DNA from: Candidatus Aenigmatarchaeota archaeon
GTDB taxonomy: Archaea > Aenigmatarchaeota > Aenigmatarchaeia > QMZP01 > QMZT01
Direction of reading: 5' to 3'
NCBI GenBank assembly: GCA_026397315.1
Contig: JAPLVC010000007.1
Coordinates: 32,001 to 96,000 of the forward strand
DNA length: 64,000 bases
Under the pieces are notes generated by a model, which did no database searches, was not told where the DNA came from, and was given only the letters and a program-made list of their open reading frames with translations. The position numbers and the translations under genes were made by a program. This document shows, in pieces, positions 2,569 through 32,126 of the stretch; the first letter of the stretch is position 1; every line of letters begins with the position of its first letter.

Positions 2569-5181
2569 TCATCCCACGTATTCCTTGCCGTTGAACTTGA
2601 CCGCGAAACCTTTGCTGGCGGTCTTCGTGTCGTACTCGATTATCACTTCTTCCATAGGCGCGAGCTCGAGGATTTCCCATGTTAGCGTTTCTGTCGACTC
2701 GTCGAACGGCTCTATCTTGGGTTTGACGTTGCAGCGTATGAAAGCGCCACGAGGGACGGAATCGCGCACGATTATGTCTTCAAGCGTCTTATTCGTTTTG
2801 TTGCGGACCTTCAGCATCACGCGCGGGCCGCTCACTGTTTTCTCGAGCTTCAGCGGGCCGCCGCCAAGCGACAGCGAGAACCGCTTTTCGCCGCCGGACT
2901 TCATCGTCACCCCGCCCGGCGAAGCGGCTGCTTTCCTGCTTTTCATTATCCTGAGAGCGGCGAAAGCTATGCCGCCGCAAGAGGCTATAAGGACTATTAT
3001 TTCCAGCAAAAGGATGAAGTCGAAAGGCTCGGGAACATTTACAGAGGAGATGTCCAGGAAATAGCCGCCCTTCCTCGCTGTGAAGTCGACGCGCCCGGCG
3101 TGCTTTATCTCTATCGCGGCCGTGCCGCTGCTGTCGGTCTCGTAATCGTCCTCTACCAGCGGGTCCGTGTCGAGGTATTTGACGAGTATCCTGACCCCGT
3201 CGACGGGCTCATAGTTCTGGTCCACGACCTTCAGGGCGAATTTCTGCCCCACCTCGAAGCTGCTTGGCAGCGCCATGGAAAGCATCCTCTCGACACATTC
3301 GTTCGCGGAAGAACAGGTCTCGTTCTCGTCGCACTGCAGGTCGCTGCAGCAGTAGCCTATGTCCATGTCGCATTTGTGGCTGCTTATCTTCTCCGGGCAT
3401 GCGCAGCTGACGGCCTTGCAAGCGTGAGTCGCTAGGTCACAGACCTGCGTGCCTGAGCAGACGCTGTCTGAGCAGCAGTCGTAATAGACGCACTGGTGGT
3501 CGGAAGCGTAGCCGCAGTTGCACTCAAGATCCTGGCACTCCCACGCAAGGCACGTCTGCTCGTCGTTGCAGTCGGCGGGCCAAACGCATTCGTAAGCGGG
3601 ATATACCGTGAAAGAAACGCTGGTCGTGTTGGTCACATTCGCAGATGACACGCAGATGAACACTACTTCCTCGCCGCCCTCCATGTCGGAAACGTTAATG
3701 TACATGGTGAACATGGTGGAGCCAACCGCCTGCATCTGGCCGGACATGCTGCCTATAGTGTAGTTGCAAGAGTTCATGTCGCTGTCGCTGTAGACGGACA
3801 ACGCTAGCGTCAGGTTGACGGTCAGGTTGTATTTCATGTAAGTCTCGTTCTTGGGGGATGCTATTGAAATGATGAACGCACTGGCGTTCGATTCGTTAGT
3901 TGGTATGGGGGTTAGCGCTAGCGCCAGCGACGAATCGCTGGTCAGGTTGAACGCCGTGTAATTCGATGCGTATCCCGTTTTGCTCACGTTGACGAAATAA
4001 GGATTGAACAGGAAAGTGCCGCTCGCGTTCTCGATTTTTTCATTGAGCACTTGAGACGTTATGTAGCCCTGTGCGTTTGTGTTGCCTGAAAACACGATTC
4101 CGGACAGGTTGCTCATGACCACGACCTGCGCGGCGTTTATGAAACTGCTCGCGTTGTCGATCGCCCGTACGCTAAGCTGCCACTTGCGGATGCCATAAGT
4201 ATATGTGGTGTTGGTTATGGTAGTGGAAACGGCGGATCTCATCCACAGGTCGTATATGCCGCTCGCGTTTACCAGATTGTTTGCGAGAAGCGTGTTCGAA
4301 GTGGTATCGATGTAAAGGCCGTAACCCGTATTGCCAAGTATCACGTTGCCGGTGACGATGCTGTTGGCGGAGTTGGCCAGCTCGAGGCCGTAGGAACCCT
4401 TGTTCGCCTCTATCCTGTTGCCTGTCAAGTTGTTGCCCACGCCGGCGATGCCGAAGCCGCCCCCGCTGTTGTTGAAGAATATGTTCGAGCTTATCACAGA
4501 ATTGTTTATGAGGAACGCCGGGAACGCAGTGGAGCTGCTGTTGGCTATGACGTTCGAGGAGAGCGTTATGCCGCTGCCGGTCATGCCGGCGATGTTGCCG
4601 CCGCTGTTCGAGACGAGCGTGTTGCCCGTTATGATGTCGTTCGAGCCCGAGACTTCGATGCCCACGTAATTGGAGGCGAACGTGCTGGCGCTCACGTTGC
4701 TGCCTGAAGCGTAAAGCAGAAGGGCGTAATAGTTGTTCGCGAATGTAACGTTGGAAATGACGGTGCCGGACGACTTGACATAGACGCCTCTCATCTTGTT
4801 GTCGCCGGAAATGAAGCCGCAGCCGCTCACGGACGAGTCGCGGATTGAGAGGGTCGCGCCCGTGTTAGATACGAACGTGTATGCATACGACGATTCGCTG
4901 CGTATGGTCGAGCCGGCTATGGAAAGCGTGCCGTTGACATCTATGCCGAACTGGCCGTTATAGTTCGAGTTAAAACTGAGAATTGAGTTTTCCAGCGTTA
5001 GGTTGCTCACACCGTTAATCAGCAGGCTGCCGTTGAGGACTATGGTCTGGGACGAGCAGACGATGTTCTCCGTAATCAGCCAATCTCCAGTCGCGGGCGG
5101 CTCGCATCCCTGGGCGGCTGCATATCCAGGCTGCGCAGCGAAAGCTATTGCAAACGCTATCGCTAAAATCCAACTCCTCAT
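2569..5181 (-). CDS. Large surface protein: signal peptide, parallel beta-helix (NosD/PbH1-like) repeats, Cys-rich repeats, TM anchor, C-terminal Ig/DUF11-like domain
   Basis: Signal peptide; Asn/Gly-rich beta-helix repeats; many NxS/T sequons; CC-x3-C repeats; TM ILLLEIIVLIASCGGIAFAAL. Confidence 0.8.
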   Translation of the reverse strand: MRSWILAIAFAIAFAAQPGYAAAQGCEPPATGDWLITENIVCSSQTIVLNGSLLINGVSNLTLENSILSFNSNYNGQFGIDVNGTLSIAGSTIRSESSYAYTFVSNTGATLSIRDSSVSGCGFISGDNKMRGVYVKSSGTVISNVTFANNYYALLLYASGSNVSASTFASNYVGIEVSGSNDIITGNTLVSNSGGNIAGMTGSGITLSSNVIANSSSTAFPAFLINNSVISSNIFFNNSGGGFGIAGVGNNLTGNRIEANKGSYGLELANSANSIVTGNVILGNTGYGLYIDTTSNTLLANNLVNASGIYDLWMRSAVSTTITNTTYTYGIRKWQLSVRAIDNASSFINAAQVVVMSNLSGIVFSGNTNAQGYITSQVLNEKIENASGTFLFNPYFVNVSKTGYASNYTAFNLTSDSSLALALTPIPTNESNASAFIISIASPKNETYMKYNLTVNLTLALSVYSDSDMNSCNYTIGSMSGQMQAVGSTMFTMYINVSDMEGGEEVVFICVSSANVTNTTSVSFTVYPAYECVWPADCNDEQTCLAWECQDLECNCGYASDHQCVYYDCCSDSVCSGTQVCDLATHACKAVSCACPEKISSHKCDMDIGYCCSDLQCDENETCSSANECVERMLSMALPSSFEVGQKFALKVVDQNYEPVDGVRILVKYLDTDPLVEDDYETDSSGTAAIEIKHAGRVDFTARKGGYFLDISSVNVPEPFDFILLLEIIVLIASCGGIAFAALRIMKSRKAAASPGGVTMKSGGEKRFSLSLGGGPLKLEKTVSGPRVMLKVRNKTNKTLEDIIVRDSVPRGAFIRCNVKPKIEPFDESTETLTWEILELAPMEEVIIEYDTKTASKGFAVKFNGKEYVG

Positions 5182-5213
5182 AAGTTAATCTTGGCCGAGC
5201 CCTCTTATATTGG

Positions 5214-6329
5214 TTAAATGAGTTCGTATAAAATCCTCGGCGCGCTCTTCAGAATGACTTTCCACACAGTCCTGTAGTCCTGCTCGCTGTCGACCAGGCC
5301 GCACATGACGTTGCCGAAAGTCCTGCTTCTCGCGGAGAGGCGTATGAATATTTCCAGTATAGTCTTGTGCGAAAGCAGGTTTCGCATCTTAATGCCCTCG
5401 CGTATGTAATGCCCGTATTCCTCGCGCCACATGCGCTCGTAGCTTGCGATATCGCCTGAAGCGATCGCTTTCGCAGCGAGCTCGGCTCCCCACATCGCAT
5501 AAGTTATGCCCGCGCCCATCATGGGGTCGACGTGCCCCGCGGCATCGCCAATCAGGAGCCAGTCCTCGCCCGATGTAGGCAACTGCAAAAATCCCTCGTC
5601 TTTCGGCATGGGCAGCATAGCCGCCCAAGTGGAAAGCACTTTCGTGTGGCTGGCGTATTTTTTCATGAATTTATCCAGCTCCGCCTTCAGGTGTTTTCCG
5701 TTTTCCAGAACGGTCCCGACACCGATGCTTATGTCCTCTTCGCGCGGGAAGAACCACGCGTAGCCTTCCATGCCTTTAAGGAACTGTATGGTCGTCATTT
5801 CTTCAGCGTGCCTCGGGCTCTTCGCGAAGACGCCAAGGCAGACGCCGAGGTGCTCTTTAGGTATCGGGCCGATGAGCTTTCGCCTCACCAAACTGTTCAC
5901 CCCGTCCGCTCCTACAAGCACTTCGGCTTCGTACGTTTTTTTGTTTGTCTTTATTTTCCAGGAATCTCCGCTCCTTTCGAAATCGACTACCCTCTCCTCA
6001 ACAAGATTCGAACCAGCGTCAATCGCTTTGTGCAGAATGAACATGTCCATGCGCTTTCTCGAAAAAGCAGACGTTTCCTCGTCTCCCGTGACCAGCGCCT
6101 CTTTTCCACCAGGAGATACTAGCTTCAACCAGTCGTCGTTGTCATCGTAATGCAGCCCGTGCAGCAAAGTAAATTTCTTCAAAGCCAGCGCCGATATCCC
6201 GCCGCCGCACGGCTTCTCGCGCGGGTGCGAGTCGTCAAAAATAGTCGCCTTTATGCCTTCGCTAGCGAGACAGTAGCCGAGATGCGCTCCCGCCGGCCCT
6301 CCGCCGACGATGGCGATGGGAATTTTCAT
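5214..6329 (-). CDS. Geranylgeranyl reductase family FAD-dependent oxidoreductase
   Basis: IVGGGPAG, KPCGGG, GADG, GYAWFFP, LIGDAAGHVDP. Confidence 0.9.
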   Translation of the reverse strand: MKIPIAIVGGGPAGAHLGYCLASEGIKATIFDDSHPREKPCGGGISALALKKFTLLHGLHYDDNDDWLKLVSPGGKEALVTGDEETSAFSRKRMDMFILHKAIDAGSNLVEERVVDFERSGDSWKIKTNKKTYEAEVLVGADGVNSLVRRKLIGPIPKEHLGVCLGVFAKSPRHAEEMTTIQFLKGMEGYAWFFPREEDISIGVGTVLENGKHLKAELDKFMKKYASHTKVLSTWAAMLPMPKDEGFLQLPTSGEDWLLIGDAAGHVDPMMGAGITYAMWGAELAAKAIASGDIASYERMWREEYGHYIREGIKMRNLLSHKTILEIFIRLSARSRTFGNVMCGLVDSEQDYRTVWKVILKSAPRILYELI

Positions 6330-6377
6330 GAAACATAATTCGATACAAAACAATAAAAGCAGTTTCTTTCCTTTCGT

Positions 6378-7148
6378 CTATTCTGCGACTGGTCTGTTAG
6401 TCCCTATCTTGCCTGCAGGCGTCGCTTTCTTCGATCGTCTTGACACGACTTTCTCCTCAGGCACTTTGCCAGCGATGTCGGGCTTCGCAACAGCAGGTTT
6501 CGTTTCTACATACTGGAAGTTCGTCGGGGGCGTCACTGGCGAAGCGTTGGATTCGACTGGCCGCTTCTCTGTCGCGAACGACGTGAGGTTCGCCGGCTTC
6601 GCTTCAGGCTTCGTCATTCTGGCGAGCGACGCTTGCTCGTTGGACTGGTCCTTCGCCTTCGCAGCCTGCAGGCCGTTGTGGAGCATCTCCTTTATCTTCT
6701 GCCTGTCGAGGCCGAAATAACGTTCGAATTCCTTGGTGACTGAAAGCTTGACCGTGCGCCCCTCTTTCTCGGCTTTCAGCAGGCCCTTCTTCCTCAGCTT
6801 CTTGATGTAAGCGTAAGCTTTGTTACCCTGTATCTCCACGACGTGGCTCTGCTTGACCGGTTCTTTATACACGACTAACGCGAGCGTTCGTTTATGGCCG
6901 TCCCTAAGGTCGGAATAAGGCGTCAGGTGGGCGACCTTCGGGAGGACTTCAGGCTTGACGCGCATCTCCCAGCCCTCCGGGTTGCGGATGACCTCGACTC
7001 CCTTGCCCTCGCTGGCGTATTCCTTGACTATCGCGTCCAGCGTCTTCTCGACGTTCCTAGGGGTGACGCCGGTCACTTTCGCTATCTCGTCGGCGCTCAT
7101 CGTCCTGGACGACATGAACAGCGCGGCCTCAATCAGCTTCCTAGACAT
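6378..7148 (-). CDS. scpB: SMC-Scp complex subunit ScpB with low-complexity C-terminal tail
   Basis: LIEAALF, TLALVVYKEPV, VTKEFERYFGL. Confidence 0.9.
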   Translation of the reverse strand: MSRKLIEAALFMSSRTMSADEIAKVTGVTPRNVEKTLDAIVKEYASEGKGVEVIRNPEGWEMRVKPEVLPKVAHLTPYSDLRDGHKRTLALVVYKEPVKQSHVVEIQGNKAYAYIKKLRKKGLLKAEKEGRTVKLSVTKEFERYFGLDRQKIKEMLHNGLQAAKAKDQSNEQASLARMTKPEAKPANLTSFATEKRPVESNASPVTPPTNFQYVETKPAVAKPDIAGKVPEEKVVSRRSKKATPAGKIGTNRPVAE

Positions 7149-7265
7149 CGCAACACCTCAAAACGCATTAATAATATCTATGGCGGCCAAATTTTAAATG
7201 CTCTGCCGTCACTTTCTCCACGCTCGACTTTGCGTAATAAATAGAAGCTCGGACAATATTCATAC

Positions 7266-7439
7266 ATGGAAACAGCCATCAAATACGTCATGATAATATT
7301 CATTCTCATCGTGGTCACTATTATCATAATAGGGCTCCTGTCCGTGTGGACGGGCCAGTCGAGCGACATGGCATCGGGCATAGTCAACTTCTTCAGCGGC
7401 GTTGGACCCGACAACCTCAAGGACGTCCTCAAGAAATAG
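7266..7439 (+). CDS. Small pilin-like membrane protein (57 aa; not in ORF track)
   Basis: METAIKYVMIIFILIVVTIIIIGLLSVWTGQSSDMASGIVNFFSG...; hydrophobic helix then amphipathic helix, host-like codons. Confidence 0.65.
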   Translation: METAIKYVMIIFILIVVTIIIIGLLSVWTGQSSDMASGIVNFFSGVGPDNLKDVLKK

Positions 7440-7621
7440 CACGCTGGATTGGATGCTGTAGTTTTTTCACAAAAGTCCCAAAACCAACCTTTATAAGCCG
7501 GCCGCCCAAAAATTCAAATATAACGGGGTTATATCTGGGATTGTGAACGTGTATTTCACTTATAAGTAGTGAAAAACGAAAGGTTTATAAACCCAAAATC
7601 CAAGTATATTCAGGTGTTTGT

Positions 7622-8275
7622 ATGACGAATGGGCACGCAACAATATTGCATCCAGGACAGGTTCGAAACCTGCCTGACCAGAAGCAGTTATTTGAAGAGC
7701 CTGTAAGTTTTATGAAAAAGCACTGGAAAGGCTTTGCAACTGGCGGGATACTGGCAGCCGGCGGCACGGTGCTTCTCTTGTCAGGCGCGCTCAAAAATGA
7801 CGATCACAAGCCCGGTTATGTGCCGGTAGGCGACACGACAAGCCACAACCAAGTCATGGACAATCCCAATCAATACAGGGACGAGGCGCTTGCGAAAACC
7901 GGTCTAGGGAAGAATGCTGTTTACCTGGGAAATAAACAGAATAATAGTTATGGAGCAAATGATTTTGACCAATGGATTAACCCGAACGACTACAAGGGAA
8001 GCGATAAACTTGTGAACAGGGTTGTAGATGACATAAATGAGACAAACAAACTATATGCCGAAAAATCTCACGGGAAATGGATAGACGAGCCTTTCATGGT
8101 GTCTGAAAAGAAAAAACTTACAGATGAAGAAATATCAGCAACCCATATTCGTGGTATGAGACAAGTCCCAGGGTTTAAAAACATGTATAAAGTTATCATT
8201 GCCAACGCTAAAGGTCGTACTTATGAATGGTTAATAACTGAATTCGAAAATGGTAAATTAATGTCCCGCTACTGA
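7622..8275 (+). CDS. Hypothetical membrane-anchored protein
   Basis: 217-aa ORF, SD-like AGGTG, one hydrophobic segment (GFATGGILAAGGTVLLL). Confidence 0.7.
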   Translation: MTNGHATILHPGQVRNLPDQKQLFEEPVSFMKKHWKGFATGGILAAGGTVLLLSGALKNDDHKPGYVPVGDTTSHNQVMDNPNQYRDEALAKTGLGKNAVYLGNKQNNSYGANDFDQWINPNDYKGSDKLVNRVVDDINETNKLYAEKSHGKWIDEPFMVSEKKKLTDEEISATHIRGMRQVPGFKNMYKVIIANAKGRTYEWLITEFENGKLMSRY

Positions 8276-8278
8276 TTT

Positions 8279-11110
8279 TTAATTGCCCGGCCAATCAGTC
8301 GTATGTTTTGCATAAACTTGCGCGGTGCCGCCCATGGCGTTTATCACTACTGATGAAAATAGCCTTGCTCCGGGTTTTTTAACTACGATTTGAAGCACAA
8401 TATCCGCTATCATAGTACCTGCAAATATCGCAGTTGCTGCTCCAGAAGGTTTAGTATAGCAGTAATTGTGCTTTTCACTTGAGTATGGGCTCTGGTCGGC
8501 ATATATCAATAATGCGTCATTGACAATGCAATTGGTTCCCAATTTGGCATATTTTGTAAATGTCCTAGTTTCAGCCTCTTTGCAATCTTTATTAAAGAAA
8601 ATTGGTTGTTCGACATTCGCAGCGTCACTTCTTAATTGGCAATTGACTAATTTTTTATGAACAATGCCTTCCAAGTTTCCATCTTCATCACCCCACGAAA
8701 CAATGCTTAGTTTGTGAGCAATAGTCAGAATGTCAGGTGTGGTTATACTTTGGAATTCGACTGAATTCACTTTCTGTTCTGATTTTGTTATATTAATTAC
8801 TATATACGTTGTTTCTCCATAATCCGGAATTTCTATAACGCTTTTCAAATCTTTCAATCTGTAAGTAAATAAGATAAAATCGCTTTTATCAACAAATCCC
8901 ATATTATTGCCTGAGCCGAGATTTCCAAGTTCGAAAATGTCGTATTTAGATAAATCGGTTATATCAAACGGTGGTTTATCAATTGCATGTACTTCATTAT
9001 TTTTGCCAACATATTCTATCGCATTCGTCTTTGGATTGTAATAGAAATCTAAATCTGTCACTGGTTCTTTTATATGAATATATTTATCCGGTAAGGTATA
9101 ACTAGGAACTGCAATATCATTTTGTAAAATAGGTATTTTATTGCCGGCAGTGATGTCCGTTATCAAAGTTGTTTCCTTGGAAGCAATTTCAGCTTTCAGA
9201 TTCTTATCTTTCTCCATATTATCTTTATTGATACTGATTAAACCGGTACTGTCAGTAGATGTATATTTATTCATCTCTACATGTGAAAATGGCAAATTTT
9301 CACAAACATCAAATGGTCCTTCTTCAATCCTCTCGCTATAACCTTGGGAGTCTCTTGGCAAGCACTCGATACTTTTTGATTCTATGTCATATTTGTATGA
9401 TCCGCAAGGAACTGGTTTTGGACTTTTAATTATCTGAAGATCGGCCTTGCATGGGGATGCCAGATAAAAAGGCACGTACGCGGGTGCTATTTCTTTTTGC
9501 AGGAAGCTGTAATCCTTTAAAAGTATGATTGGCACGTTGAATCTTGAAACTTTAAATTCTTCTGCCTCATTGGTGAAAAGAGTTCTTTTTTGTAATACGA
9601 GGGAGCCTGGCTTTTCGTAAAATTTGTCATTTATTGCATCCAATTTATATCCAAGAAAATCAATACCCGCCGCTAAGCCTGTAACCTTTAGCGCTCTTGC
9701 ATAATCTTCCCAAGCTGGTGTAAATGCTTTTGTTCCCATGAATTTGTTTAAAATGCCAGTTTTTTTCACGACATCCAGTTTTTCAAAATCTTTTTTAACA
9801 AGCTCTGAAACTTTCGCTATTGCAGTACTTTCGCCTTTATCGAGGGCTTCCTTAACCGCTTTTTCCAATACAGAGTTTCCAATTTCTTTTGAAAGGTAAT
9901 AGGTCGCTAAGCCATCTGCACCTTCAGAAATAACTTTGGTGCCTATTATTTTTCCGGCCAGCTTTTTTTTACCATAAGCTACTATTATCTGTTCTTCTGC
10001 TTCTTGTGTGCTTTTGCCAATAAGTTTAGAAACTAGTTTAGAAACCATATTCTTACTTTTACTTGCGAGGTCCTTCACCTTACCCACAACAAACCTTTTT
10101 CCGGCACCGAAAATTTCGGAGACAGGCAAAGCGTACATGAAAACTGTTTCTGCATTTTCCATCCATGTGGATAATTTCGTCCATCCAACATCCTCGCCTT
10201 CTGGGAATCTTTGCCAGTAAAGTATAAACTGCGGGTCGCCCAATCCTTCAAATAAAACCTTATGTACGTTACTTTCATCGGTAATTATCTGCGGAAGTTG
10301 AAAATTTTTAATTGTGCATTTAGCGTCTTTTTCAAGGCCTACTTTTTCGAGGTTGTTAATGTTATCGATTGTCAAAGTTTCTGATTTTTCATTTTTGTGA
10401 TGAATTATAATTTCATCATCTCCTCCCCTCACGACTGCCTGCTCTAGTATTTTAATGCCAGCACTGTATCTGCTTTTCTCTGGCTGATTTTTGTCTATTG
10501 CGCCGATTTCATTGCCAATCCACAGGTGTATTTCATCAACACCAGAAAACATTGAATTCATACTCGAAACGGTTTTGTATTCATAAAATTTCTCGCCGCA
10601 ATCGGGACATTTAGATTTCCATTCACCGCTATCGAATACGTACCAAACATTCTCGTGATCACATGCGGGGTTTAAAGTTCCGCAGTCTTCATCATATTCT
10701 AACTCAGGGTAACCGCTTTTCAAGTCACAATAAAGGGATGCATCACTTGGTGCTGATTGTGTCTGAGTTTGGGAGTTTTGCGTGGCGGTAGCATCCGCGG
10801 CAGCATTGCCTGTCACAGTCGCACCGTTAGGTGAGTTTTTAATAATACCTGCACATTGTTCATCGCCAGTAAAAACAGTGTCTATCGCACACTTCAACAT
10901 CTGTGTAGACTGCTTGGCGCTTTCGTAATCCACTGTCGAAACTTTACCTGTGCACAGGGCGGGTATTTTGTCACAGATACCGTCGAGTATGGAGTTGATG
11001 CCGCCCGACTGGGCGATGATGAAGCCTATGACAAGAAACGTGAAAACCAGGGCGATTAGGATTTCAAAAGGCGGCTGGGCGATGAAACTGTCTCCCTTCC
11101 TCTTACCCAT
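8279..11110 (-). CDS. Large (943 aa) protein with class III (pilin-like) signal peptide
   Basis: ATG at 11110 gives MGKRKG|DSFIAQPPFEILIALVFTFLVIGFII; Cys-rich extracellular parts; AT-rich body. Confidence 0.8.
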   Translation of the reverse strand: MGKRKGDSFIAQPPFEILIALVFTFLVIGFIIAQSGGINSILDGICDKIPALCTGKVSTVDYESAKQSTQMLKCAIDTVFTGDEQCAGIIKNSPNGATVTGNAAADATATQNSQTQTQSAPSDASLYCDLKSGYPELEYDEDCGTLNPACDHENVWYVFDSGEWKSKCPDCGEKFYEYKTVSSMNSMFSGVDEIHLWIGNEIGAIDKNQPEKSRYSAGIKILEQAVVRGGDDEIIIHHKNEKSETLTIDNINNLEKVGLEKDAKCTIKNFQLPQIITDESNVHKVLFEGLGDPQFILYWQRFPEGEDVGWTKLSTWMENAETVFMYALPVSEIFGAGKRFVVGKVKDLASKSKNMVSKLVSKLIGKSTQEAEEQIIVAYGKKKLAGKIIGTKVISEGADGLATYYLSKEIGNSVLEKAVKEALDKGESTAIAKVSELVKKDFEKLDVVKKTGILNKFMGTKAFTPAWEDYARALKVTGLAAGIDFLGYKLDAINDKFYEKPGSLVLQKRTLFTNEAEEFKVSRFNVPIILLKDYSFLQKEIAPAYVPFYLASPCKADLQIIKSPKPVPCGSYKYDIESKSIECLPRDSQGYSERIEEGPFDVCENLPFSHVEMNKYTSTDSTGLISINKDNMEKDKNLKAEIASKETTLITDITAGNKIPILQNDIAVPSYTLPDKYIHIKEPVTDLDFYYNPKTNAIEYVGKNNEVHAIDKPPFDITDLSKYDIFELGNLGSGNNMGFVDKSDFILFTYRLKDLKSVIEIPDYGETTYIVINITKSEQKVNSVEFQSITTPDILTIAHKLSIVSWGDEDGNLEGIVHKKLVNCQLRSDAANVEQPIFFNKDCKEAETRTFTKYAKLGTNCIVNDALLIYADQSPYSSEKHNYCYTKPSGAATAIFAGTMIADIVLQIVVKKPGARLFSSVVINAMGGTAQVYAKHTTDWPGN

Positions 11111-11233
11111 GAATATGTATGTGCAGCCTTTCTTTATATTGGTTTGATACGGGCGCATCCGAACTGCCAAAAGCCCCGCCAGCGCCGCAACAATAACCAA
11201 AGTTTAAATAGAGCCTAGCCCCAAATATTCATT

Positions 11234-11509
11234 ATGAACACATCATTGGAAATCGTGGTCGTGGCAATCATCCTTCTGGTCGTGGCGCTGGTTCTTCTGA
11301 CGATATTCGGAACTGGCATGACACCATTCGGTGCTTTCACAAGCAACAAAAATGTATGCATACAACAATACGACTCTTCGTGCAAAGCTACTGGTAATGA
11401 TCCTGTGGATTGGGGAGTCGCTAAATACAAGGACTCTAAAGGGGTTTTGCAAGCGTGCTCGACTCTTGCCAAGTGTTCATGCATCAATAACGTCGCCTCG
11501 TGCACCTAA
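11234..11509 (+). CDS. Pilin-like protein lacking a basic leader
   Basis: MNTSLEIVVVAIILLVVALVLL; Cys-rich C-terminus; TATA TTTAAATA ~24 nt upstream. Confidence 0.8.
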   Translation: MNTSLEIVVVAIILLVVALVLLTIFGTGMTPFGAFTSNKNVCIQQYDSSCKATGNDPVDWGVAKYKDSKGVLQACSTLAKCSCINNVASCT

Positions 11510-11559
11510 ACTTCAAACTCCTTTCTTTTATTTATACCAATTTATTACAAGTATTACTT

Positions 11560-11991
11560 ATGAGAATGGCCCTTGAGATTGTGGTCGTGACTATCATACT
11601 TCTTGTCGTGGCGATTGTGGTACTCATGTTTTTCGCCAACGGCATGCGTGCCGGCGTCGACATGACGGACGCGAGGAACCAGTGCATTACCATGGCCTCG
11701 GCCTCGTGCAAGTCGCTGAAGGTCTTGCCTCCGACATGGTTTGTGCCGACGGTCACCGTTGAAGGGAAGACCGCACCGGAAAGCTGCGACGATATAACAG
11801 AGGGAGCCTACAAAGATTGCAGTAAATTTGGCGTGACCGGAGGCGGCGCGACGACAGGCGGAACGACGACGATAACCACGAACACACAGTGCACGACAGC
11901 ATTATACACTTGCGAGGCCTCGTGCACTGCACCCAAGACGCAAAAAGGGACATGCGATGCCGACCCCGCCAAGAAAGCGTGCTGCGGCTGA
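11560..11991 (+). CDS. Pilin-like protein, paralog of 11234 gene, with Thr/Gly linker and Cys-rich tail
   Basis: MRMALEIVVVTIILLVVAIVVL; shared C-x7-C-x9-W pattern. Confidence 0.8.
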   Translation: MRMALEIVVVTIILLVVAIVVLMFFANGMRAGVDMTDARNQCITMASASCKSLKVLPPTWFVPTVTVEGKTAPESCDDITEGAYKDCSKFGVTGGGATTGGTTTITTNTQCTTALYTCEASCTAPKTQKGTCDADPAKKACCG

Positions 11992-12006
11992 TAGCGGGAA
12001 TGTGAG

Positions 12007-12126
12007 ATGATGCAAATGATGAAAGGGCAAAGTGATATCGTGGCCTCAGGCCTGCCCATATTCGCGATGGTCGTGCTGATAGTCCTTATCATACTGGTGG
12101 CCGTGAGGATTTTCGGCGGCGGATGA
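12007..12126 (+). CDS. Micro-pilin-like protein with class III signal (39 aa; not in ORF track)
   Basis: MMQMMKG|QSDIVASGLPIFAMVVLIVLIILVAVRIFGGG; stop abuts next ATG. Confidence 0.65.
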   Translation: MMQMMKGQSDIVASGLPIFAMVVLIVLIILVAVRIFGGG

Positions 12127-12127
12127 A

Positions 12128-12313
12128 ATGGTGAAAAACTTGGAAAGGGAAACCGGCAAAACGGGGAAAAAGAAGGGCTTCATAATATTCATGGGTCTCA
12201 ACATGTGGGTCGAAATCCTGCTCATGATAGTCCTGACGTTCATACTCATAGCGGTCATAGACGCTCTTTCTGGCTACAGGATTGGCTTCCTGAGCATACT
12301 GGGAATAAAATAG
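12128..12313 (+). CDS. Small class III signal peptide protein
   Basis: KKKG|FIIFMGLNMWVEILLMIVLTFILIAVI. Confidence 0.7.
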   Translation: MVKNLERETGKTGKKKGFIIFMGLNMWVEILLMIVLTFILIAVIDALSGYRIGFLSILGIK

Positions 12314-12360
12314 AATCAGTCAAATACGGATATAATTATAATTGCATACAATTATTAACT

Positions 12361-12942
12361 ATGAAAAAAGCCTCTTCGTCATCCATCATGACATTCAGGC
12401 TGGTTATATCCCTCATCCTCGGAATTTTTGTGATTGTTCTTCTCATCAGAGGCATAAACGAGCAGGTATACGGTGCCTGCTGGAGCCAGGCGAAATACGC
12501 CTTCGAGGAGCTGAAGGATGGGGAAAACGACATCGTGCTGGGCGATTGCATAGTCAATGCCTACTTGGTCCCCAAAGACGGACTTGACGCCCTAAGGGCT
12601 CAGGACGTGAACATATTCAGCTGCGCCAAGAGGAACGACCCGGAATATTTCTCTTTTGCCATAATCAGGCCTAACAGCGACGTGAAGGTGACTGAAATAA
12701 TCGAGAGCGGCGGCAAGAAAATAACCCAGACCATGCTTGAAACGTATTGCGTCGGATACAGATACAAGCTGAACACCATGAGCCTGAATATTTTTGAAGG
12801 CAAGAAGAGCTATTGCATAAAGCTCGATCGGGTAAGCGGCAGCACCGACTCGAACGACAAGTATGTAAGCATAAGGGAAGGCGCATGCTCTGCATCATTT
12901 TCAGGAGGAGCATCGGGCGGAGCCGGAGCAAGCAAATCTTAA
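12361..12942 (+). CDS. Pilin-like protein with class III-like signal
   Basis: MKKA|SSSSIMTFRLVISLILGIFVIVLLI; paired Cys. Confidence 0.75.
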   Translation: MKKASSSSIMTFRLVISLILGIFVIVLLIRGINEQVYGACWSQAKYAFEELKDGENDIVLGDCIVNAYLVPKDGLDALRAQDVNIFSCAKRNDPEYFSFAIIRPNSDVKVTEIIESGGKKITQTMLETYCVGYRYKLNTMSLNIFEGKKSYCIKLDRVSGSTDSNDKYVSIREGACSASFSGGASGGAGASKS

Positions 12943-12969
12943 TAATTATAACGGAAGGCGGGTGTTAGA

Positions 12970-13977
12970 TTGGGAGAAACTGAAGAGGATGTTCTCGAAG
13001 CCCTCGCGATGGTCATAATAGTTGTCCTGGGCCTGATAGTGCTGATCGTATCGATAATGCCCAGTAGTTTTACCGGCACCAGCGCCGGGGCGTTTGCTGT
13101 GGCGACTGGCATATCATATTCTATAAGCGGGCTGTCGCTAGCGGACGAAGGCTCGATGACAAGATATCTCAACGGCAGCTACGACATCGAGATAGGCCTG
13201 GAAGAGGATTCTGACGGTCCCCTGAAGAATTATTACATAAGGGCGACGGCTTACGGAAAAGGAAACCCGCTCAGCCCTATAGACAAGATAATTTTCATAG
13301 GCGACATGCAGCTGGACAAAGACCCGACAAAACTGGTAAACGTCACGTACATCAGCCTCACGAAAAGCTACGGCAAGCCTGTCAGGATAGTCAAGACCAC
13401 GGAAACTCGCTTCTCGGACGCCCTTTGCAAAGAGCCGACGCCTGAGAAAATAAAGGATTACATCCAGACATACTCGCCGGACAAGGAAGAACAGAAATGG
13501 ATAAAGGCGATAATAATGACTGAAAGCGGTTATGTCCATTGCAGCGGTTCGACCGTGGGGGCGTTCGGCTTCATGCAGCTCATGGAAATCGCCGCGAGGG
13601 ACGTGGGCATAAGCGACAGGTTCGACCCTGAGCAGAACATCGATGGCGGCGTGAGATACTACAGGAAGCTCGTGCAAAAATACGAATCCTACGACGACAA
13701 ATACGTGCTGGCTGTCGCCAGTTACAACTGCGGCAAGATAGGCACTCTCGTGTCGCAGAACTGCGACGCGCAGAACATATACATCGGCTGCTGGGAAAAG
13801 GCCGTCAGGGAGTTCACGCGTGAGAAGGAGTGCCAGGGCAGCGGCGGCAAGGAAACTTACAACTACGTGGACAGGGTAAAGACATGCGTGAAATATTACG
13901 AGCAAAACCCGGAATGCTACAACAGTCCGGGCACGGGCAGCTCGTGCCCTAAAAGCAGTGACTGCGGAAACTGGTGA
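12970..13977 (+). CDS. Pilin-like membrane-anchored lytic transglycosylase (SLT/GH23 domain)
   Basis: N-terminal TM; AIIMTES (catalytic E185), GAFGFMQLM, FDPEQNIDGGVRY, LAVASYNCG, ETYNYVDRV. Confidence 0.92.
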   Translation: MGETEEDVLEALAMVIIVVLGLIVLIVSIMPSSFTGTSAGAFAVATGISYSISGLSLADEGSMTRYLNGSYDIEIGLEEDSDGPLKNYYIRATAYGKGNPLSPIDKIIFIGDMQLDKDPTKLVNVTYISLTKSYGKPVRIVKTTETRFSDALCKEPTPEKIKDYIQTYSPDKEEQKWIKAIIMTESGYVHCSGSTVGAFGFMQLMEIAARDVGISDRFDPEQNIDGGVRYYRKLVQKYESYDDKYVLAVASYNCGKIGTLVSQNCDAQNIYIGCWEKAVREFTREKECQGSGGKETYNYVDRVKTCVKYYEQNPECYNSPGTGSSCPKSSDCGNW

Positions 13978-13980
13978 AAT

Positions 13981-14763
13981 ATGCTTAAAAAAATGAAAGG
14001 CGGCATAAGTGAATCGCCATGGACAATCTGGGCAGTCATAATATTCGCGGCCGTCATCGTCGCTGGTTCATTTTTCCTCAATTCGTATTATATCGATTAC
14101 GCGGCATTTCTGAAAACTCCGCCGGAAAGGCTCAAAGCGCTTGAAGCAACCAACGCCGTGCGCGGGTGCCTGCTTAACGGGAAGCCTTACGTGACGAAGG
14201 ACTTTCTCGACGAGAACAGCGGCGAGGACATAGACGACCTGTGCGGCTTCGAGGACCCGGGTACAGAAGCCGACGTCCTTGACACGCAAACCGGCCAGAA
14301 GTGGGGTCTGAGCTCGAGTCTGAGCAAAGCGGACCACTCGGTCTGGATTCCGATTGCTTACACAGGTTTTCAGGAAATAACCGATGTCAATTACGCTTTA
14401 AGCGGAGAATATGTCATACATGCGAAGTGGCTAGGCGTCGGGGTGCTTAACATAAAAGCCAACGACGTCATTTTGGAATTATATCCTTCGGCGCTTTACC
14501 CGGGCGGATCAAGCAAGCTTGAAAGCGTCACCTCTTCCAAAGTCAGGGAATGGATAGAAAAGCTGGTTGATGCTGACAACCCCGAAGGCACGCAGAAGGC
14601 GGACCTGACAGGCATGAACATAATGGCGATAATCCCGTCAGAATACAGTCTCAAAGAATGCAGTTCGGTTGGCGACCTGCTTTCCCACGAGGCCTGCGTG
14701 AAAATGTTTACGGGGGTAAAAGAAATTCATTTAGGGAGACTGAACGTCGATGTTACGCTCTAA
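13981..14763 (+). CDS. Class III signal peptide (minor pilin-like) protein
   Basis: MLKKMKG|GISESPWTIWAVIIFAAVIVAG. Confidence 0.75.
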   Translation: MLKKMKGGISESPWTIWAVIIFAAVIVAGSFFLNSYYIDYAAFLKTPPERLKALEATNAVRGCLLNGKPYVTKDFLDENSGEDIDDLCGFEDPGTEADVLDTQTGQKWGLSSSLSKADHSVWIPIAYTGFQEITDVNYALSGEYVIHAKWLGVGVLNIKANDVILELYPSALYPGGSSKLESVTSSKVREWIEKLVDADNPEGTQKADLTGMNIMAIIPSEYSLKECSSVGDLLSHEACVKMFTGVKEIHLGRLNVDVTL

Positions 14764-15781
14764 AAATAAAAAGGGGATAGCGGACTTTGCGTTGTTCGTC
14801 GTGATAGCGATAGCGGTCGTATCGCTCATACTCGTTGCCAGCTGGCTGGGAAAGGTGCTTGGCCAGGGTAGGCAGCTAGTCAAAGTCAAGGGAGTGGTGG
14901 ACGTTTACGTCAACCTTGACGACAAAGGCAGCGAGTTCAGCTTTCTGGAAGCCAAAAATGGCGATTATGATTTCATGGAAATTCTCGGCGTCGTGGGATC
15001 CGGAGCCAAGATAGGAGGCGACCTTAAAGCCCAGATGGAAAATGTGGAAAAAAGCATCGAAAGGATAAAGAATTCCGACAAGAAAAATTTCTACATATCC
15101 GTCATAAGCCCGGAGGGTAAAGTGGTGTATGAGAAGAAAAGCGGCAATCCGCCGCTCGTCGTGGGAACGGGCGGAGAGGACATACTGCTAAAATGGCCGC
15201 TGGACGCCAGCAACTATGAGATAATATCGGGTTTCGGGTGGAGAAAAGACCCATTCTCAGGCAAGGACTCGTTCCACGGCGGTATAGACATACCGGGAAA
15301 TCTGGGAGACCCCGTTTACAGCGCAACGGACGGAACCGTATACAGGACGGTAAACAATGATGCGGATTTGGGCAATTTTGTCGTTATAAAATACACATCA
15401 CAAAGGACGAACACGCCGTATTACGTTTATTACGGACACATGCAGGGCTTTTCCGTAAGAACTGGTGACAGTGTGAAGATCGGAGAGGAGATAGGGAAAG
15501 TTGGCTCCACCGGCAAATCACAGGGCCCGCACCTGCATTTCGAGATAAGAAAAGACAAAAACGGCGACGGCAATTTAGCGCCAGACGCAGAGTCGGTAAA
15601 CCTCTGCCCGTATCTCACAGGCGCGTCAGGCGGCATTGTCGACTCAAAAACTTGCATGAAAAAATGCCCGGTATACGAGAATCCGGACTCATGCGATTCT
15701 GATATGACGGTCGTCACGAACAGGTTTGACATACCTGTTCCGGGCGGAAAGAAAGGCTACGTGGAGCTGATGCTATGGTAA
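14750..15781 (+). CDS. Class III signal peptide protein with M23 (LytM/lysostaphin-type) peptidase domain
   Basis: KNKKG|IADFALFVVI; ISGFGWRKDP, HGGID (H176-x3-D180), YGHM, GSTGKSQGPHLHFEIR (H261-x-H263). Confidence 0.93.
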   Translation: MLRSKNKKGIADFALFVVIAIAVVSLILVASWLGKVLGQGRQLVKVKGVVDVYVNLDDKGSEFSFLEAKNGDYDFMEILGVVGSGAKIGGDLKAQMENVEKSIERIKNSDKKNFYISVISPEGKVVYEKKSGNPPLVVGTGGEDILLKWPLDASNYEIISGFGWRKDPFSGKDSFHGGIDIPGNLGDPVYSATDGTVYRTVNNDADLGNFVVIKYTSQRTNTPYYVYYGHMQGFSVRTGDSVKIGEEIGKVGSTGKSQGPHLHFEIRKDKNGDGNLAPDAESVNLCPYLTGASGGIVDSKTCMKKCPVYENPDSCDSDMTVVTNRFDIPVPGGKKGYVELMLW

Positions 15782-16941
15782 AATTCAAGGGCATGACGAT
15801 AAACATCCTCAGCGTAGGCCTGATAATACTCGTTTCCGTGATTCTTTATGCGTTCCTCAACCCGCTATCGCAGCCGCATTCGTCTGAATACGCGAAAACG
15901 GATATCTATGTCATGAAAAACGCCCTAGATTCGTCCAAAGTCTATTTGAGGGCGTCTTTCGATTATGCTGTTTACCAGGCGCTTTACGACGTTTCGAGAA
16001 AGGGAGGGTTTAGCGACGCCCAAAGCCAGTCCGCATACGCTAACGCTCTGGCGCCTGTCATATCATGCCAGAAAACCGACAAAAGAATCGGTGAGCCGGA
16101 AAAGATAATCGGCTGCGTTCCCGGCGAATACGGATGCCCAGACAGCGACGGCAAAGATGCTTACATAAACGAAGGTTACCAGGTAGGCCTCTTGCAATTC
16201 CTGCTAAAAGACCTTAAATACGAACTTACCGTTGACTGCAAGTTTGGCAAGGGCAGCCTGGAAAAACTCAAGGAATTCCAGAAAGACAAAGGCCTTACTG
16301 AAAGCGGTTTCCTTGACGACGCCACGACGGAGAAGCTGAAAGAATCCTTTGCTTACGATAACTGCGGGGATTATTTTTACGGATGCACGAACAGTTTTTC
16401 TGCCGTATGGAGCACGGAACTCGCAGAAGACCAGTTCAAAAGTAACATCAAGAATGAGATCGTAAAAAACATGAACTCATACACGTCAAAAGGATACGTC
16501 TTCCTCGACCTTCCAATAACAGGTCTTCCGCAATACAAAACCGACAAGATTACGATTTCCGAATCCGGGACTGGATTGAAAGTCTCGCTCAGCGGGGATA
16601 ACATAAAAATATCAAAGAAAGATGAATATGAAGTCATTGACATAGCGTCATCGTCCGACATGGAAAAAATATACGATATAGATGCCTTCGGCATTTACAG
16701 GAAAGCAAAAAGCGTATACAACGACATTAAAAGCAAAGGATGCGATGCCGCAAAAGACGAAACGAAAACTGAAGGCGGATTTAAAACTGAAGTGAAGATC
16801 GTGAGCAAGACGACGAACCCTGAATGCTCCGCTAAAGTCAGGGTCTCGGTGGTGGAAGAAAATCCTAAAAAAGTTCCTGTCTTCAACGGACGTTCCGTAT
16901 CTTTCGAGCCGGTTAACATGATTTTAATGTTGAATTTGTAA
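15775..16941 (+). CDS. Class III signal peptide protein with peptidoglycan-binding (PG_binding_1-like) domain
   Basis: MVKFKG|MTINILSVGLIIL; VGLLQFLLKDLKY...VDCKFGKGSLEKLKEFQKDKGLTESGFLDDATTEKL. Confidence 0.8.
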   Translation: MVKFKGMTINILSVGLIILVSVILYAFLNPLSQPHSSEYAKTDIYVMKNALDSSKVYLRASFDYAVYQALYDVSRKGGFSDAQSQSAYANALAPVISCQKTDKRIGEPEKIIGCVPGEYGCPDSDGKDAYINEGYQVGLLQFLLKDLKYELTVDCKFGKGSLEKLKEFQKDKGLTESGFLDDATTEKLKESFAYDNCGDYFYGCTNSFSAVWSTELAEDQFKSNIKNEIVKNMNSYTSKGYVFLDLPITGLPQYKTDKITISESGTGLKVSLSGDNIKISKKDEYEVIDIASSSDMEKIYDIDAFGIYRKAKSVYNDIKSKGCDAAKDETKTEGGFKTEVKIVSKTTNPECSAKVRVSVVEENPKKVPVFNGRSVSFEPVNMILMLNL

Positions 16942-17104
16942 TGCAGCCAGCGCTGGGAACGTCCCGCGCATAGATTTGTTTTTCAACCACGTTTCAAACC
17001 TTTTAAAAGCGCCGAATTAATGATAAAATAGCCAGGCCAACTGGCGGAAACAGGCAACGCATCATGGCAAAAAAGCGACGCGCATGACTTGGGAGGTGCT
17101 TAGC

Positions 17105-17431
17105 ATGGCAGAGGAAAACGCTGAGACAAGAAGCGAAGCGAAAGAGAGCAAATACAGGTTCAGAGAGAACGACAACGTGATATTCGTCGGGAGTAAGCCG
17201 ACAATGTCATACGTGCTTGCAGTGATGACCCAGTTCTCCGGTGGGACGAATGAAGTGCACATCAAGGCAAGGGGGCGTTCTATCTCGAGAGCGGTGGACG
17301 TCGTCGAAGTTGTGAAGAACAGGTTCGTCAACACGGCGAAGCACACGATAGAGATAGGCACCGAGAAGATGCACGCGGAGAACAACATGGATATCAACGT
17401 GTCGACCATCGACATAAAGCTCGTGAAGTAA
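17105..17431 (+). CDS. albA: DNA/RNA-binding protein Alba
   Basis: VIFVGSKPTMSYVLAV, IKARGRSISRAVDV; SD GGAGGTG. Confidence 0.95.
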   Translation: MAEENAETRSEAKESKYRFRENDNVIFVGSKPTMSYVLAVMTQFSGGTNEVHIKARGRSISRAVDVVEVVKNRFVNTAKHTIEIGTEKMHAENNMDINVSTIDIKLVK

Positions 17432-17444
17432 ACCAGCGACTGCT

Positions 17445-17500
17445 TTTTCTTTTATTTTATCGCCTTGAGCGAAAGCTTTGTCGATGCGAAAATAAAGAAA
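17445..17500. terminator. T-rich / A-rich imperfect inverted repeat between convergent alba and tRNA-Leu
   Basis: TTTTTCTTTTATTTT ... AAAATAAAGAAA gives oligo-U tracts on both strands. Confidence 0.4.
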
Positions 17501-17501
17501 G

Positions 17502-17690
17502 TGCGGGGGCGGAGAGTCGAACTCCGGAAGGCACTAAGCCACAGGATGGCTTATGAGGCTTTTTGTTCACAGACACCAGGTCTCGCAACTTAAAGTCCTA
17601 CCTTAAGTTTGGCAAAGACAGTTCGACAATGATTTTGTTCATTATCTTTCGCTGTCTTTCCTGCCCCTTTGACCACTCGGGAACCCCCGC
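17502..17690 (-). tRNA. tRNA-Leu(UAA) with two introns (30/31: 17609-17659; 37/38: 17548-17601)
   Basis: Spliced: GCGGGGGTTCCCGAGTGGTCAAAGGGG CAGGA CT TAA GA TCCTG, long variable arm, GTTCGAC T-loop; both introns form BHB-like motifs. Confidence 0.88.
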
Positions 17691-31908: not shown

Positions 31909-32126
31909 AGTACTTTACCTTCCATGCGCACTTCAACAATCCTGTGGTTCGGTATGTGAGTCTCGCGGCCGTTATCTTTATAGTGGAAGTGCGACCTTTT
32001 TAATTCCGTCACGTTCGCGCCGGATACCGTCTTCACGTCGCCGGGCGCGCCCCTATGGACGAACGTTATTTCCGCCTTCGCGAGCGCGCCTGTCCACTTG
32101 AGCCTGTTGAGCGTCTCGAAGGCCAT
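31875..32126 (-). CDS. DUF504 / RNA-repair domain protein
   Basis: LNRLKW, FVHRGAP, IPNHRI. Confidence 0.85.
   Translation of the reverse strand: MAFETLNRLKWTGALAKAEITFVHRGAPGDVKTVSGANVTELKRSHFHYKDNGRETHIPNHRIVEVRMEGKVLWQKRTNTRKE

Follow-up and report, generated by a model that had tools for sequence, protein, structure and literature searches.

Murein-cutting domains exchanged on a conserved pilin-like cassette of Aenigmatarchaeota suggest a filament for attack on bacterial walls

Why would a DPANN archaeon encode enzymes that cut murein, and why would it build them into proteins that resemble pilins? The question is raised by a 64,000-nucleotide stretch (hereafter the window; positions 32001–96000 of contig C6 of genome G000, to which the contigs C3 and C7 named below also belong) from a metagenome-assembled genome of the Aenigmatarchaeota (1.05 Mb on 7 contigs, 91% complete, 0.4% contaminated). 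Nine consecutive genes on the + strand (11234–16941) and a divergent gene for a 943-amino acid (aa) protein form the cluster in question, all ten of them located where a preliminary description, made from the window alone, had placed them. That description proposed a pilus or tip complex that grips and drills bacterial walls, a proposal that motif conservation, structural models, the filament machinery of the genome and synteny all support, with the filament, its activity and the lifestyle still putative. The reading favored here, with a rough probability of 60% for the whole chain, is that the locus encodes the tip of a type IV filament armed for contact attack on the walls of live bacteria; the narrower claim, that the wall enzymes are carried by the complex of a type IV filament, is probable.

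Three of the genes carry the wall-directed domains already recognized in the preliminary description, and all three domains pass their Pfam cut-offs. Gene g6 (12970–13977, +) joins a pilin-like scaffold (approximately residues 1–145) to a C-terminal SLT/GH23 domain (residues 173–256; 13486–13737, +; E = 1.3e-15), g8 (14750–15781, +) is a pilin-like scaffold interrupted by an M23 endopeptidase (Peptidase_M23, residues 175–270; 15272–15559, +; E = 5.5e-27), and g9 (15775–16941, +), the largest scaffold of the cassette, holds an internal PG_binding_1 insert (residues 134–188; 16174–16338, +; E = 7.9e-8). The murein-hydrolase matches in NCBIfam are concordant with Pfam, but fall under the equivalog cut-offs. 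The SLT domain retains its catalytic residues (E185, G200-F-M-Q, and Y252-N), with the ES, GxMQ, and AxYNxG motifs of SLT/GH23 all present and E185 invariant in 17 of 17 aligned sequences. The M23 domain retains H176-x3-D180, H230, and H261-x-H263, corresponding to the HxxxD and HxH zinc ligands on a LytM fold, and its model resembles LytM-family structures with Z scores of 17–19 (to 2b0p, Z 17.5, root-mean-square deviation [rmsd] 2.1 Å over 129 residues). Among the archaeal M23 domains, HxxxD occurs with HLH in 26 of 31 and with HLD in three more, while two copies look degenerate. Judged on their residues, the SLT and M23 enzymes are intact and would be expected to act on murein.

The strongest evidence is the exchange of cargo at homologous slots. 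In g8, the M23 domain lies inside a scaffold of ~140 aa, the last strand of which (IPxPGG, conserved) comes after the insert; the same insertion site is occupied by a GH73 glucosaminidase in two loci of relatives (L111 and L121) and is empty in a third (L112), and the g8 cargo across relatives is M23, GH73, M15_4, GDSL with M23, or nothing. In family f6, the enzyme instead follows a complete g8-slot scaffold and is either an M23 or an M15_4 peptidase. Beyond its internal PG_binding_1, g9 may carry C-terminal cargo (SLT, GDSL with Amidase_3, YkuD with Amidase_3, Amidase_2, SLT with Amidase_2, M15_4, or GDSL), and in relatives SLT is also found on a stand-alone pilin-like gene of 190 aa and, in two of them, on g7 (13981–14763, +), here a pilin-like subunit of 260 aa in which ~110 aa form an insert that lacks annotation. 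A direct swap separates the near-sister loci L121 (GH73) and L128 (M23). When more than 150 cassette proteins were scanned with Pfam, the only catalytic families to appear were wall-cutting ones and the GDSL esterase, a group that includes wall O-acetyl esterases. Seven unrelated folds that share murein as a substrate, swapped at fixed slots, are what selection for murein cutting at this structure would give.

These exchanges bear on a different target for the domains, be it pseudomurein, the glycan or S-layer of an archaeal host, or the cell's own envelope, or on a role in binding only. Such a target is very improbable, since the seven families that replace one another share only murein as a substrate and since pseudomurein has neither the MurNAc-L-Ala nor the L-Ala-D-Glu bonds that amidases and M15 require; wall synthesis genes, too, were not found. 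What speaks for it is that the cultured DPANN hosts known to us are archaea, that M23 can cut other glycine-rich peptides, that GH73 and PG_binding_1 can be promiscuous, and that there are the two degenerate-looking M23 copies. No genes for murein synthesis were found in the 91%-complete genome: the searches yielded no PBP transpeptidase, and the sole gene with a Mur-ligase fold is FolC-like and sits in a folate/purine locus. Remodeling of the cell's own wall was rejected on these grounds, and with apparently no murein wall of its own the usual bacterial pairing of hydrolases with a surface machine, in which the producer's wall is opened, does not apply. Both GGGP synthase and CarS are present, so that ether lipids need not come from an archaeal host, which is compatible with a bacterial partner; the ether-lipid genes fail to separate armed genomes (those with enzyme cargo) from bare ones.

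The cassette itself is widespread. Sixty loci were read and have one order, small pilins followed by g5 (12361–12942, +; a 193-aa pilin-like subunit with enzyme cargo in none of the homologues scanned), g6, g7, g8, and g9, with the gene for the 943-aa protein nearby in many, and the synteny test proposed in the preliminary description thus recovers the same order in dozens of genomes. Of the 53 other genomes in the order, 51 match a g9 profile, almost always a single time; in the class the number is 83 of 251. The five larger genes are a cassette conserved across the order, and the feature is real, ancient, and widespread. SLT was found in 32, M23 in 37, and PG_binding_1 in 7 of 61 relatives; these genome tallies are preferable to the armed fraction among loci, which is biased because loci L111–L130 were chosen via SLT matches. 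The idea of a three-part kit for cutting and binding the wall is therefore retained only in part, in that the PG-binding domain is present but is an optional rather than a fixed member. In the class, 92 of 251 genomes have M23 domains, some of them in families without a g9 profile match (19 of 32 genomes in f8), and so other carriers exist; one example is a membrane-anchored M23 protein of 699 aa whose gene faces a bare cassette tail to tail (L242:2091–4190, +).

This recurrence also decides whether the cluster could be a fragment of bacterial DNA that was mis-assembled or mis-binned, or a passenger acquired recently, a reading with a practically negligible chance. The closest matches of the enzyme domains are bacterial (~40–47% identity), and a search for relatives seeded with the M23 gene of the window returned only bacterial M23 domains. 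Against this, the neighbor just downstream of the cluster is archaeal (an Alba gene), the gene order is identical across dozens of Aenigmatarchaeota genomes, and 30 of the 31 M23 domains from archaea share a supported branch (99/92) with a single bacterial row. The whole stretch is present in one sequencing run, from a freshwater sediment metagenome that is its possible source; a single contig from this run, which is not independent of the assembly, spans 4500–17688 with zero differences and even depth. Read mapping that exposes a bacterial fragment had been named as a possible refutation, and it was instead the fragment that contig continuity, synteny, and the M23 branch refuted, with synteny sufficient to discard mis-assembly.

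The history of the cargo is one of repeated change. On the g9 tree the armed state needs seven changes, at least three of them forced by strong branches. Genome G001 (genus g1) groups on this tree with genus g9 (support 100), sharing its GH73 and PG-binding cargo, and this grouping, in loci L111, L121, and L128, suggests transfer of the cassette between genera. Separate origins had been expected for the internal (families f1 and f5) and C-terminal (f6) placements of M23, but the M23 tree, built on few columns and a biased bacterial sample, groups 30 of 31 together; M23 may have been gained a single time long ago and then rearranged or lost. Cargo that is so often gained, lost, and swapped, as in the seven changes, would fit an arms race and hence contact-dependent antagonism or defense, in which neighbors are killed or repelled, or DNA and nucleotides freed, with no stable host. 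Halophilic archaea do kill bacteria with such hydrolases (PMC12352652). A small genome with a near-universal, single-copy scaffold nonetheless suggests an organelle of the core lifestyle, and antagonism or defense is judged decidedly unlikely; genomic data cannot separate antagonism from predation.

The N-termini connect the cassette to type IV filaments. The preliminary description gave each of the ten proteins a class III leader or a bare helix, and this wording fits, with a K-G/A leader in seven (the strict FlaFind motif in the genes starting at 8279, 12007, 12128, 14750, and 15775, and a relaxed form in those at 12361 and 13981) and a bare helix in three (the small pilins at 11234 and 11560, and g6). 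Here g6 has a TTG start, an acidic N-terminus, and no basic leader, while a leader is present in 26 of 42 of its homologues. For the homologues of the six larger genes, K/R-G/A precedes the helix in 50/53, 42/47, 38/49, 40/47, 26/42, and 20/26 (62–94% per slot), compared to 70 of 258 (27%) of the open reading frames in this genome with an N-terminal helix, and the pattern is therefore more than chance. Two short class III peptides, one of 39 aa (12007–12126, +; KG|QS plus helix, approximately the size of an Flp pilin) and one of 61 aa (12128–12313, +; KG|FI plus helix), follow the two small pilins, which are a Cys-rich protein of 91 aa (11234–11509, +), a candidate shaft pilin, and its leaderless 143-aa paralogue (11560–11991, +). 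In these small pilins the initiator methionine stands where homologues with KG/KA leaders have their mature +1 residue, and TATA-like boxes lie ~25 nt upstream (for the first, at 11203–11210 [+], ~24 nt before the ATG, supporting a leaderless start). The loss of the leader ends precisely where cleavage is predicted, and this gives indirect support to that site. With their methionine at +1 and a TATA-like box for each gene, the leaderless pilins (11234–11991 and homologues) may bypass the prepilin peptidase. A further leaderless pilin-like gene of 57 aa (7266–7439, +), absent from the preliminary description, has a TATA-like box upstream and belongs to a family that recurs beside the cassette, with homologues in most loci.

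Structural models hint at a pilin-like fold and predict a complex. The g6 scaffold was modeled with a predicted local distance difference test (pLDDT) of 92 as a helix of ~60 residues followed by beta strands, and in an exhaustive comparison with 48,161 chains bacterial type IV pilins and pseudopilins took ranks 2–9 and 18 of the top 50. These matches are weak (Z 2.5–3.5, rmsd mostly 3–5 Å over 52–94 residues, with the noise level stated as Z under 8) and are an enrichment and not proof. Atlas neighbors of the scaffold are DPANN hypothetical proteins and DUF7289 (TM 0.45), and matches of the whole g8 model are dominated by its M23 domain. Profile comparison gave a weak match of the g8 scaffold to g7 (probability 60%) and no match of g6 to g8, so that the slots are at most putative paralogues. 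Of the earlier assignment to archaellin or type IV pilin subunits, the pilin-like part is favored by these models, while the predicted heads resemble the bacterial alpha/beta pilin and not the archaellin type. A multimer had been proposed as a check, and a four-subunit complex was predicted: homologues of g6, g7, g9, and g8 from the same-genus locus L112, with author-made alignments, scored 0.78, compared to 0.01 for the best of three controls (58 of 80 solved complexes and 2 of 110 mismatched pairs reach the 0.78 mark). The separate runs share at least 52% of their contacts, and the partners reach a pLDDT of 73 or more. The contacts predicted with confidence lie outside the membrane helices, with the IPxP strand of g8 placed on g9, and the model thus supports, short of proof, that scaffolds homologous to g6–g9 bind one another. 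The possibility that the N-termini are plain transmembrane anchors was examined and not upheld, given the conserved class III motif, the pilin-like scaffold head, and the predicted complex.

If the subunits form a filament, a motor should exist, and the absence of pilus machinery from the genome, which had been raised as a refutation, is not what was found. Genome-wide searches returned four clear T2SSE-family ATPases, five TadC matches, and a single A24 prepilin peptidase (C7:110622–111464). Every match lies on another contig, in agreement with the earlier statement that the window contains no ATPase, TadC, or prepilin peptidase, though the window received no full screen for machinery. In relatives, ATPase and platform orthologues stand beside the cassette: of 40 wider loci, 16 have a TadC gene orthologous to the C3 platform no more than 14 kb from the cassette (15 of them on its strand), the C3 ATPase orthologue (47–64% identity) adjoins the cassette in 8 of 40, all among those with TadC, and 7 of the 16 TadC-linked loci are armed. 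This linkage makes the ATPase at C3:28114–30369 and the platform at C3:36346–38460 the likely cognate motor; the platform passes the T2SSF cut-off narrowly (25.8 bits) and is unlisted in another scan of the genome. Between these two genes lies one for a Cys-rich secreted protein of 1950 aa (C3:30438–36290), and a second array of five pilin-like genes is located at G000:C3:202768–205998. In genome G007, a different ATPase and two TadC genes (L117:15882–19259), orthologues of those on contig C7 of G000, precede the cassette by ~4 kb and on its own strand, such that the motor pairing may vary.

The machinery also bears on whether the cell needs live prey at all. Dead bacterial walls or biofilm could feed the cell, with no need of a live host, if the complex were a short or membrane-bound one at the surface, similar to a bindosome: binding proteins that are not filaments have class III leaders as well (PMC13705601), the sediment habitat is rich in dead cells, and the same reading has been proposed for Pacearchaeota (PMC11537232). 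However, the enzymes are inside core subunits of a cassette linked to ATPase and TadC and not beside ATP-binding cassette (ABC) transporters, one tethered copy per enzyme would suit local drilling over bulk digestion, and anhydro-MurNAc kinase (AnmK), which would handle the products of a lytic transglycosylase, was not found in the 91%-complete genome, weakly favoring breaching over feeding on wall sugars. Feeding on dead walls is thus considered unlikely.

Under the favored reading of an armed filament tip, the subunits would be inserted in the membrane and the KG/KA leaders, where present as motifs, would be removed by the single A24 peptidase, with the small pilins made leaderless. Subunits g6–g9 would assemble via their heads, the g8 IPxP strand being predicted to dock on g9, and the C3 ATPase and platform, judging by their linkage in relatives, would extend a filament with the complex at its tip, most likely made up of g5–g9. 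On contact with a bacterium, PG_binding_1 would grip the wall while SLT cuts glycan and M23 cuts cross-links, producing a local hole, as the intact active sites would allow. The membrane of the bacterium, and what it encloses, would then be open to the cell, which could live as an epibiotic parasite or predator, and the 943-aa protein may touch that membrane.

Several points weigh against this reading. The genes, motifs, active sites, synteny, cargo exchange, machinery, and its linkage in relatives can be read directly, and fold and complex are predictions, while for leader cleavage, the filament, activity, and live prey we infer each step. The SLT gene of this genome lacks a basic leader, each fold match of g6 is singly below the noise level, Foldseek with the g6 scaffold gave nothing at E ≤ 0.001, and the complex is based on homologues, with a score that may owe something to solved pilin complexes of similar form. 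As in most of its family, this genome has the cassette unlinked from ATPase and platform, and it encodes four ATPases; machinery parts are often scattered in Nanobdellati (PMC13705601). At least 16 of the sampled loci are bare, so that the role of the scaffold is a different or a broader one, and the outer membrane of diderm prey would shield murein, requiring an extra step.

The divergent gene (8279–11110, −) encodes the 943-aa protein with a class III leader, a candidate large tip or contact subunit that is present in 51 of 53 genomes of the order and whose profile matches 126 of 251 genomes of the class. The protein has conserved cysteines, an amphipathic middle, a Gly/Ala-rich hydrophobic C-terminal stretch, and an invariant WP, and may be the membrane-contacting part of the system. 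It had no match in Pfam, NCBIfam, or PDB, and its Atlas model is poor; feature matches to SseC and PT-TG scored below 0.8 and are leads only. The region of this gene (8001–10000) has 36.5% G+C compared to ~50% for the genome, and in sequencing run X4 a contig of a relative joins 7202 to 11183, skipping the gene, which may therefore move or be exchanged. In genome G004 (L114:6147–9421) the large gene, g5, and g6 are in pieces, through decay or frameshift errors of assembly. Tail to tail with the 943-aa gene is a 217-aa open reading frame (7622–8275, +) with no Pfam match that was not seen as a cassette member in relatives. Farther away, a secreted, unannotated protein of 870 aa (2569–5181, −), with repeats that look like a beta-helix, is possibly part of the same surface system; N-termini similar to it adjoin the cassette in L114, L118, L121, L125, L243, and L244.

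Among known systems, the minor-pilin tips of bacteria (GspI-J-K and XcpV-W) have a long N-terminal helix and beta-sheet head that the scaffold model resembles at low Z (7b7p, 5bw0, 2ret, and 3ci0), and a head-to-head complex like the one predicted here, and the modular pilins of the Streptococcus sanguinis PilB type share effector modules grafted on a pilin. From bacterial minor pilins the cassette differs in having no sequence similarity and low Z scores, and in carrying wall hydrolases in an organism without murein; to our knowledge the modules grafted on pilins are adhesins or lectins. Lytic transglycosylases of bacterial secretion systems and flagella (VirB1, EtgA, and FlgJ) are likewise wall hydrolases tied to a surface machine, but are separate proteins that open the producer's own wall, whereas here they are pilin-mounted in a producer apparently without one. 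Type IV pili of Saccharibacteria and predatory bacteria attach to hosts. In archaea, the closest systems are type IV filaments such as the system 1/Epd pilus and the euryarchaeal clade 2 loci (PMC4858521, PMC13705601), with class III leaders, a minor-pilin array, a VirB11-type ATPase, TadC, and an A24 peptidase in common. The cassette departs from Epd/system 1 in having no PF04021 match (QxSxE pilins) and a linked platform of one ~700-aa gene rather than two, from the archaellum in that no archaellin (PF01917) was found in the 91%-complete genome, and from archaeal type IV filaments overall in its leaderless small pilins and enzyme cargo. The Sulfolobus bindosome and class III-signal binding proteins (PMC13705601) similarly display functional domains behind a class III leader with type IV machinery, but their cargo consists of substrate-binding domains, often near ABC transporters, and not hydrolases in a pilin array.

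Peptidoglycan hydrolases of archaea have been described before, as halophile enzymes that kill bacteria (PMC12352652) and as large GH23 proteins of Woesearchaeota and Pacearchaeota (PMC8204110, PMC9723730), and they share bacterial-type SLT, M23, and amidase domains, are enriched in DPANN, and have been read as antagonism or as a sign of bacterial hosts. Those proteins are described as secreted or large and extracellular; here the domains are within pilin-like subunits of 300–400 aa in an ATPase/TadC-linked cassette and are exchanged by slot. The word 'pili' is absent from the texts of PMC8204110, PMC9723730, and PMC12352652, and the surveys of archaeal type IV systems from 2016 and 2026 (PMC4858521, PMC13705601) do not mention peptidoglycan or transglycosylase. 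The preliminary statement that archaeal hydrolases were known and their mounting on minor pilins was not agrees with these publications (PMC8204110, PMC9723730, PMC12352652), as no account of pilin-mounted wall hydrolases in archaea was found in the literature searched, mainly outside subscription papers. The cassette is best read as a variant on the type IV filament with an apparently undescribed function.

A conserved surface machine repeatedly armed with enzymes that have the bacterial wall as their shared substrate is strong genomic evidence of physical attack by an archaeon on bacteria, and it supplies a mechanism that reports of lone hydrolases lacked. Hosts have been identified for hardly any Aenigmatarchaeota, and the known DPANN symbionts in culture live on archaea. 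More tentatively, and short of an even chance, a lineage-wide filament with plug-in murein hydrolases may be the host-invasion organelle of DPANN that parasitize or prey on bacteria, in which armed and bare versions would mark bacterial and archaeal hosts and the 943-aa protein would penetrate the membrane. The question is testable, as the small single-domain enzymes can be assayed, wall preference would narrow the prey, and armed versus bare predicts host type. If true, an offensive enzymatic role would be added to type IV filaments.

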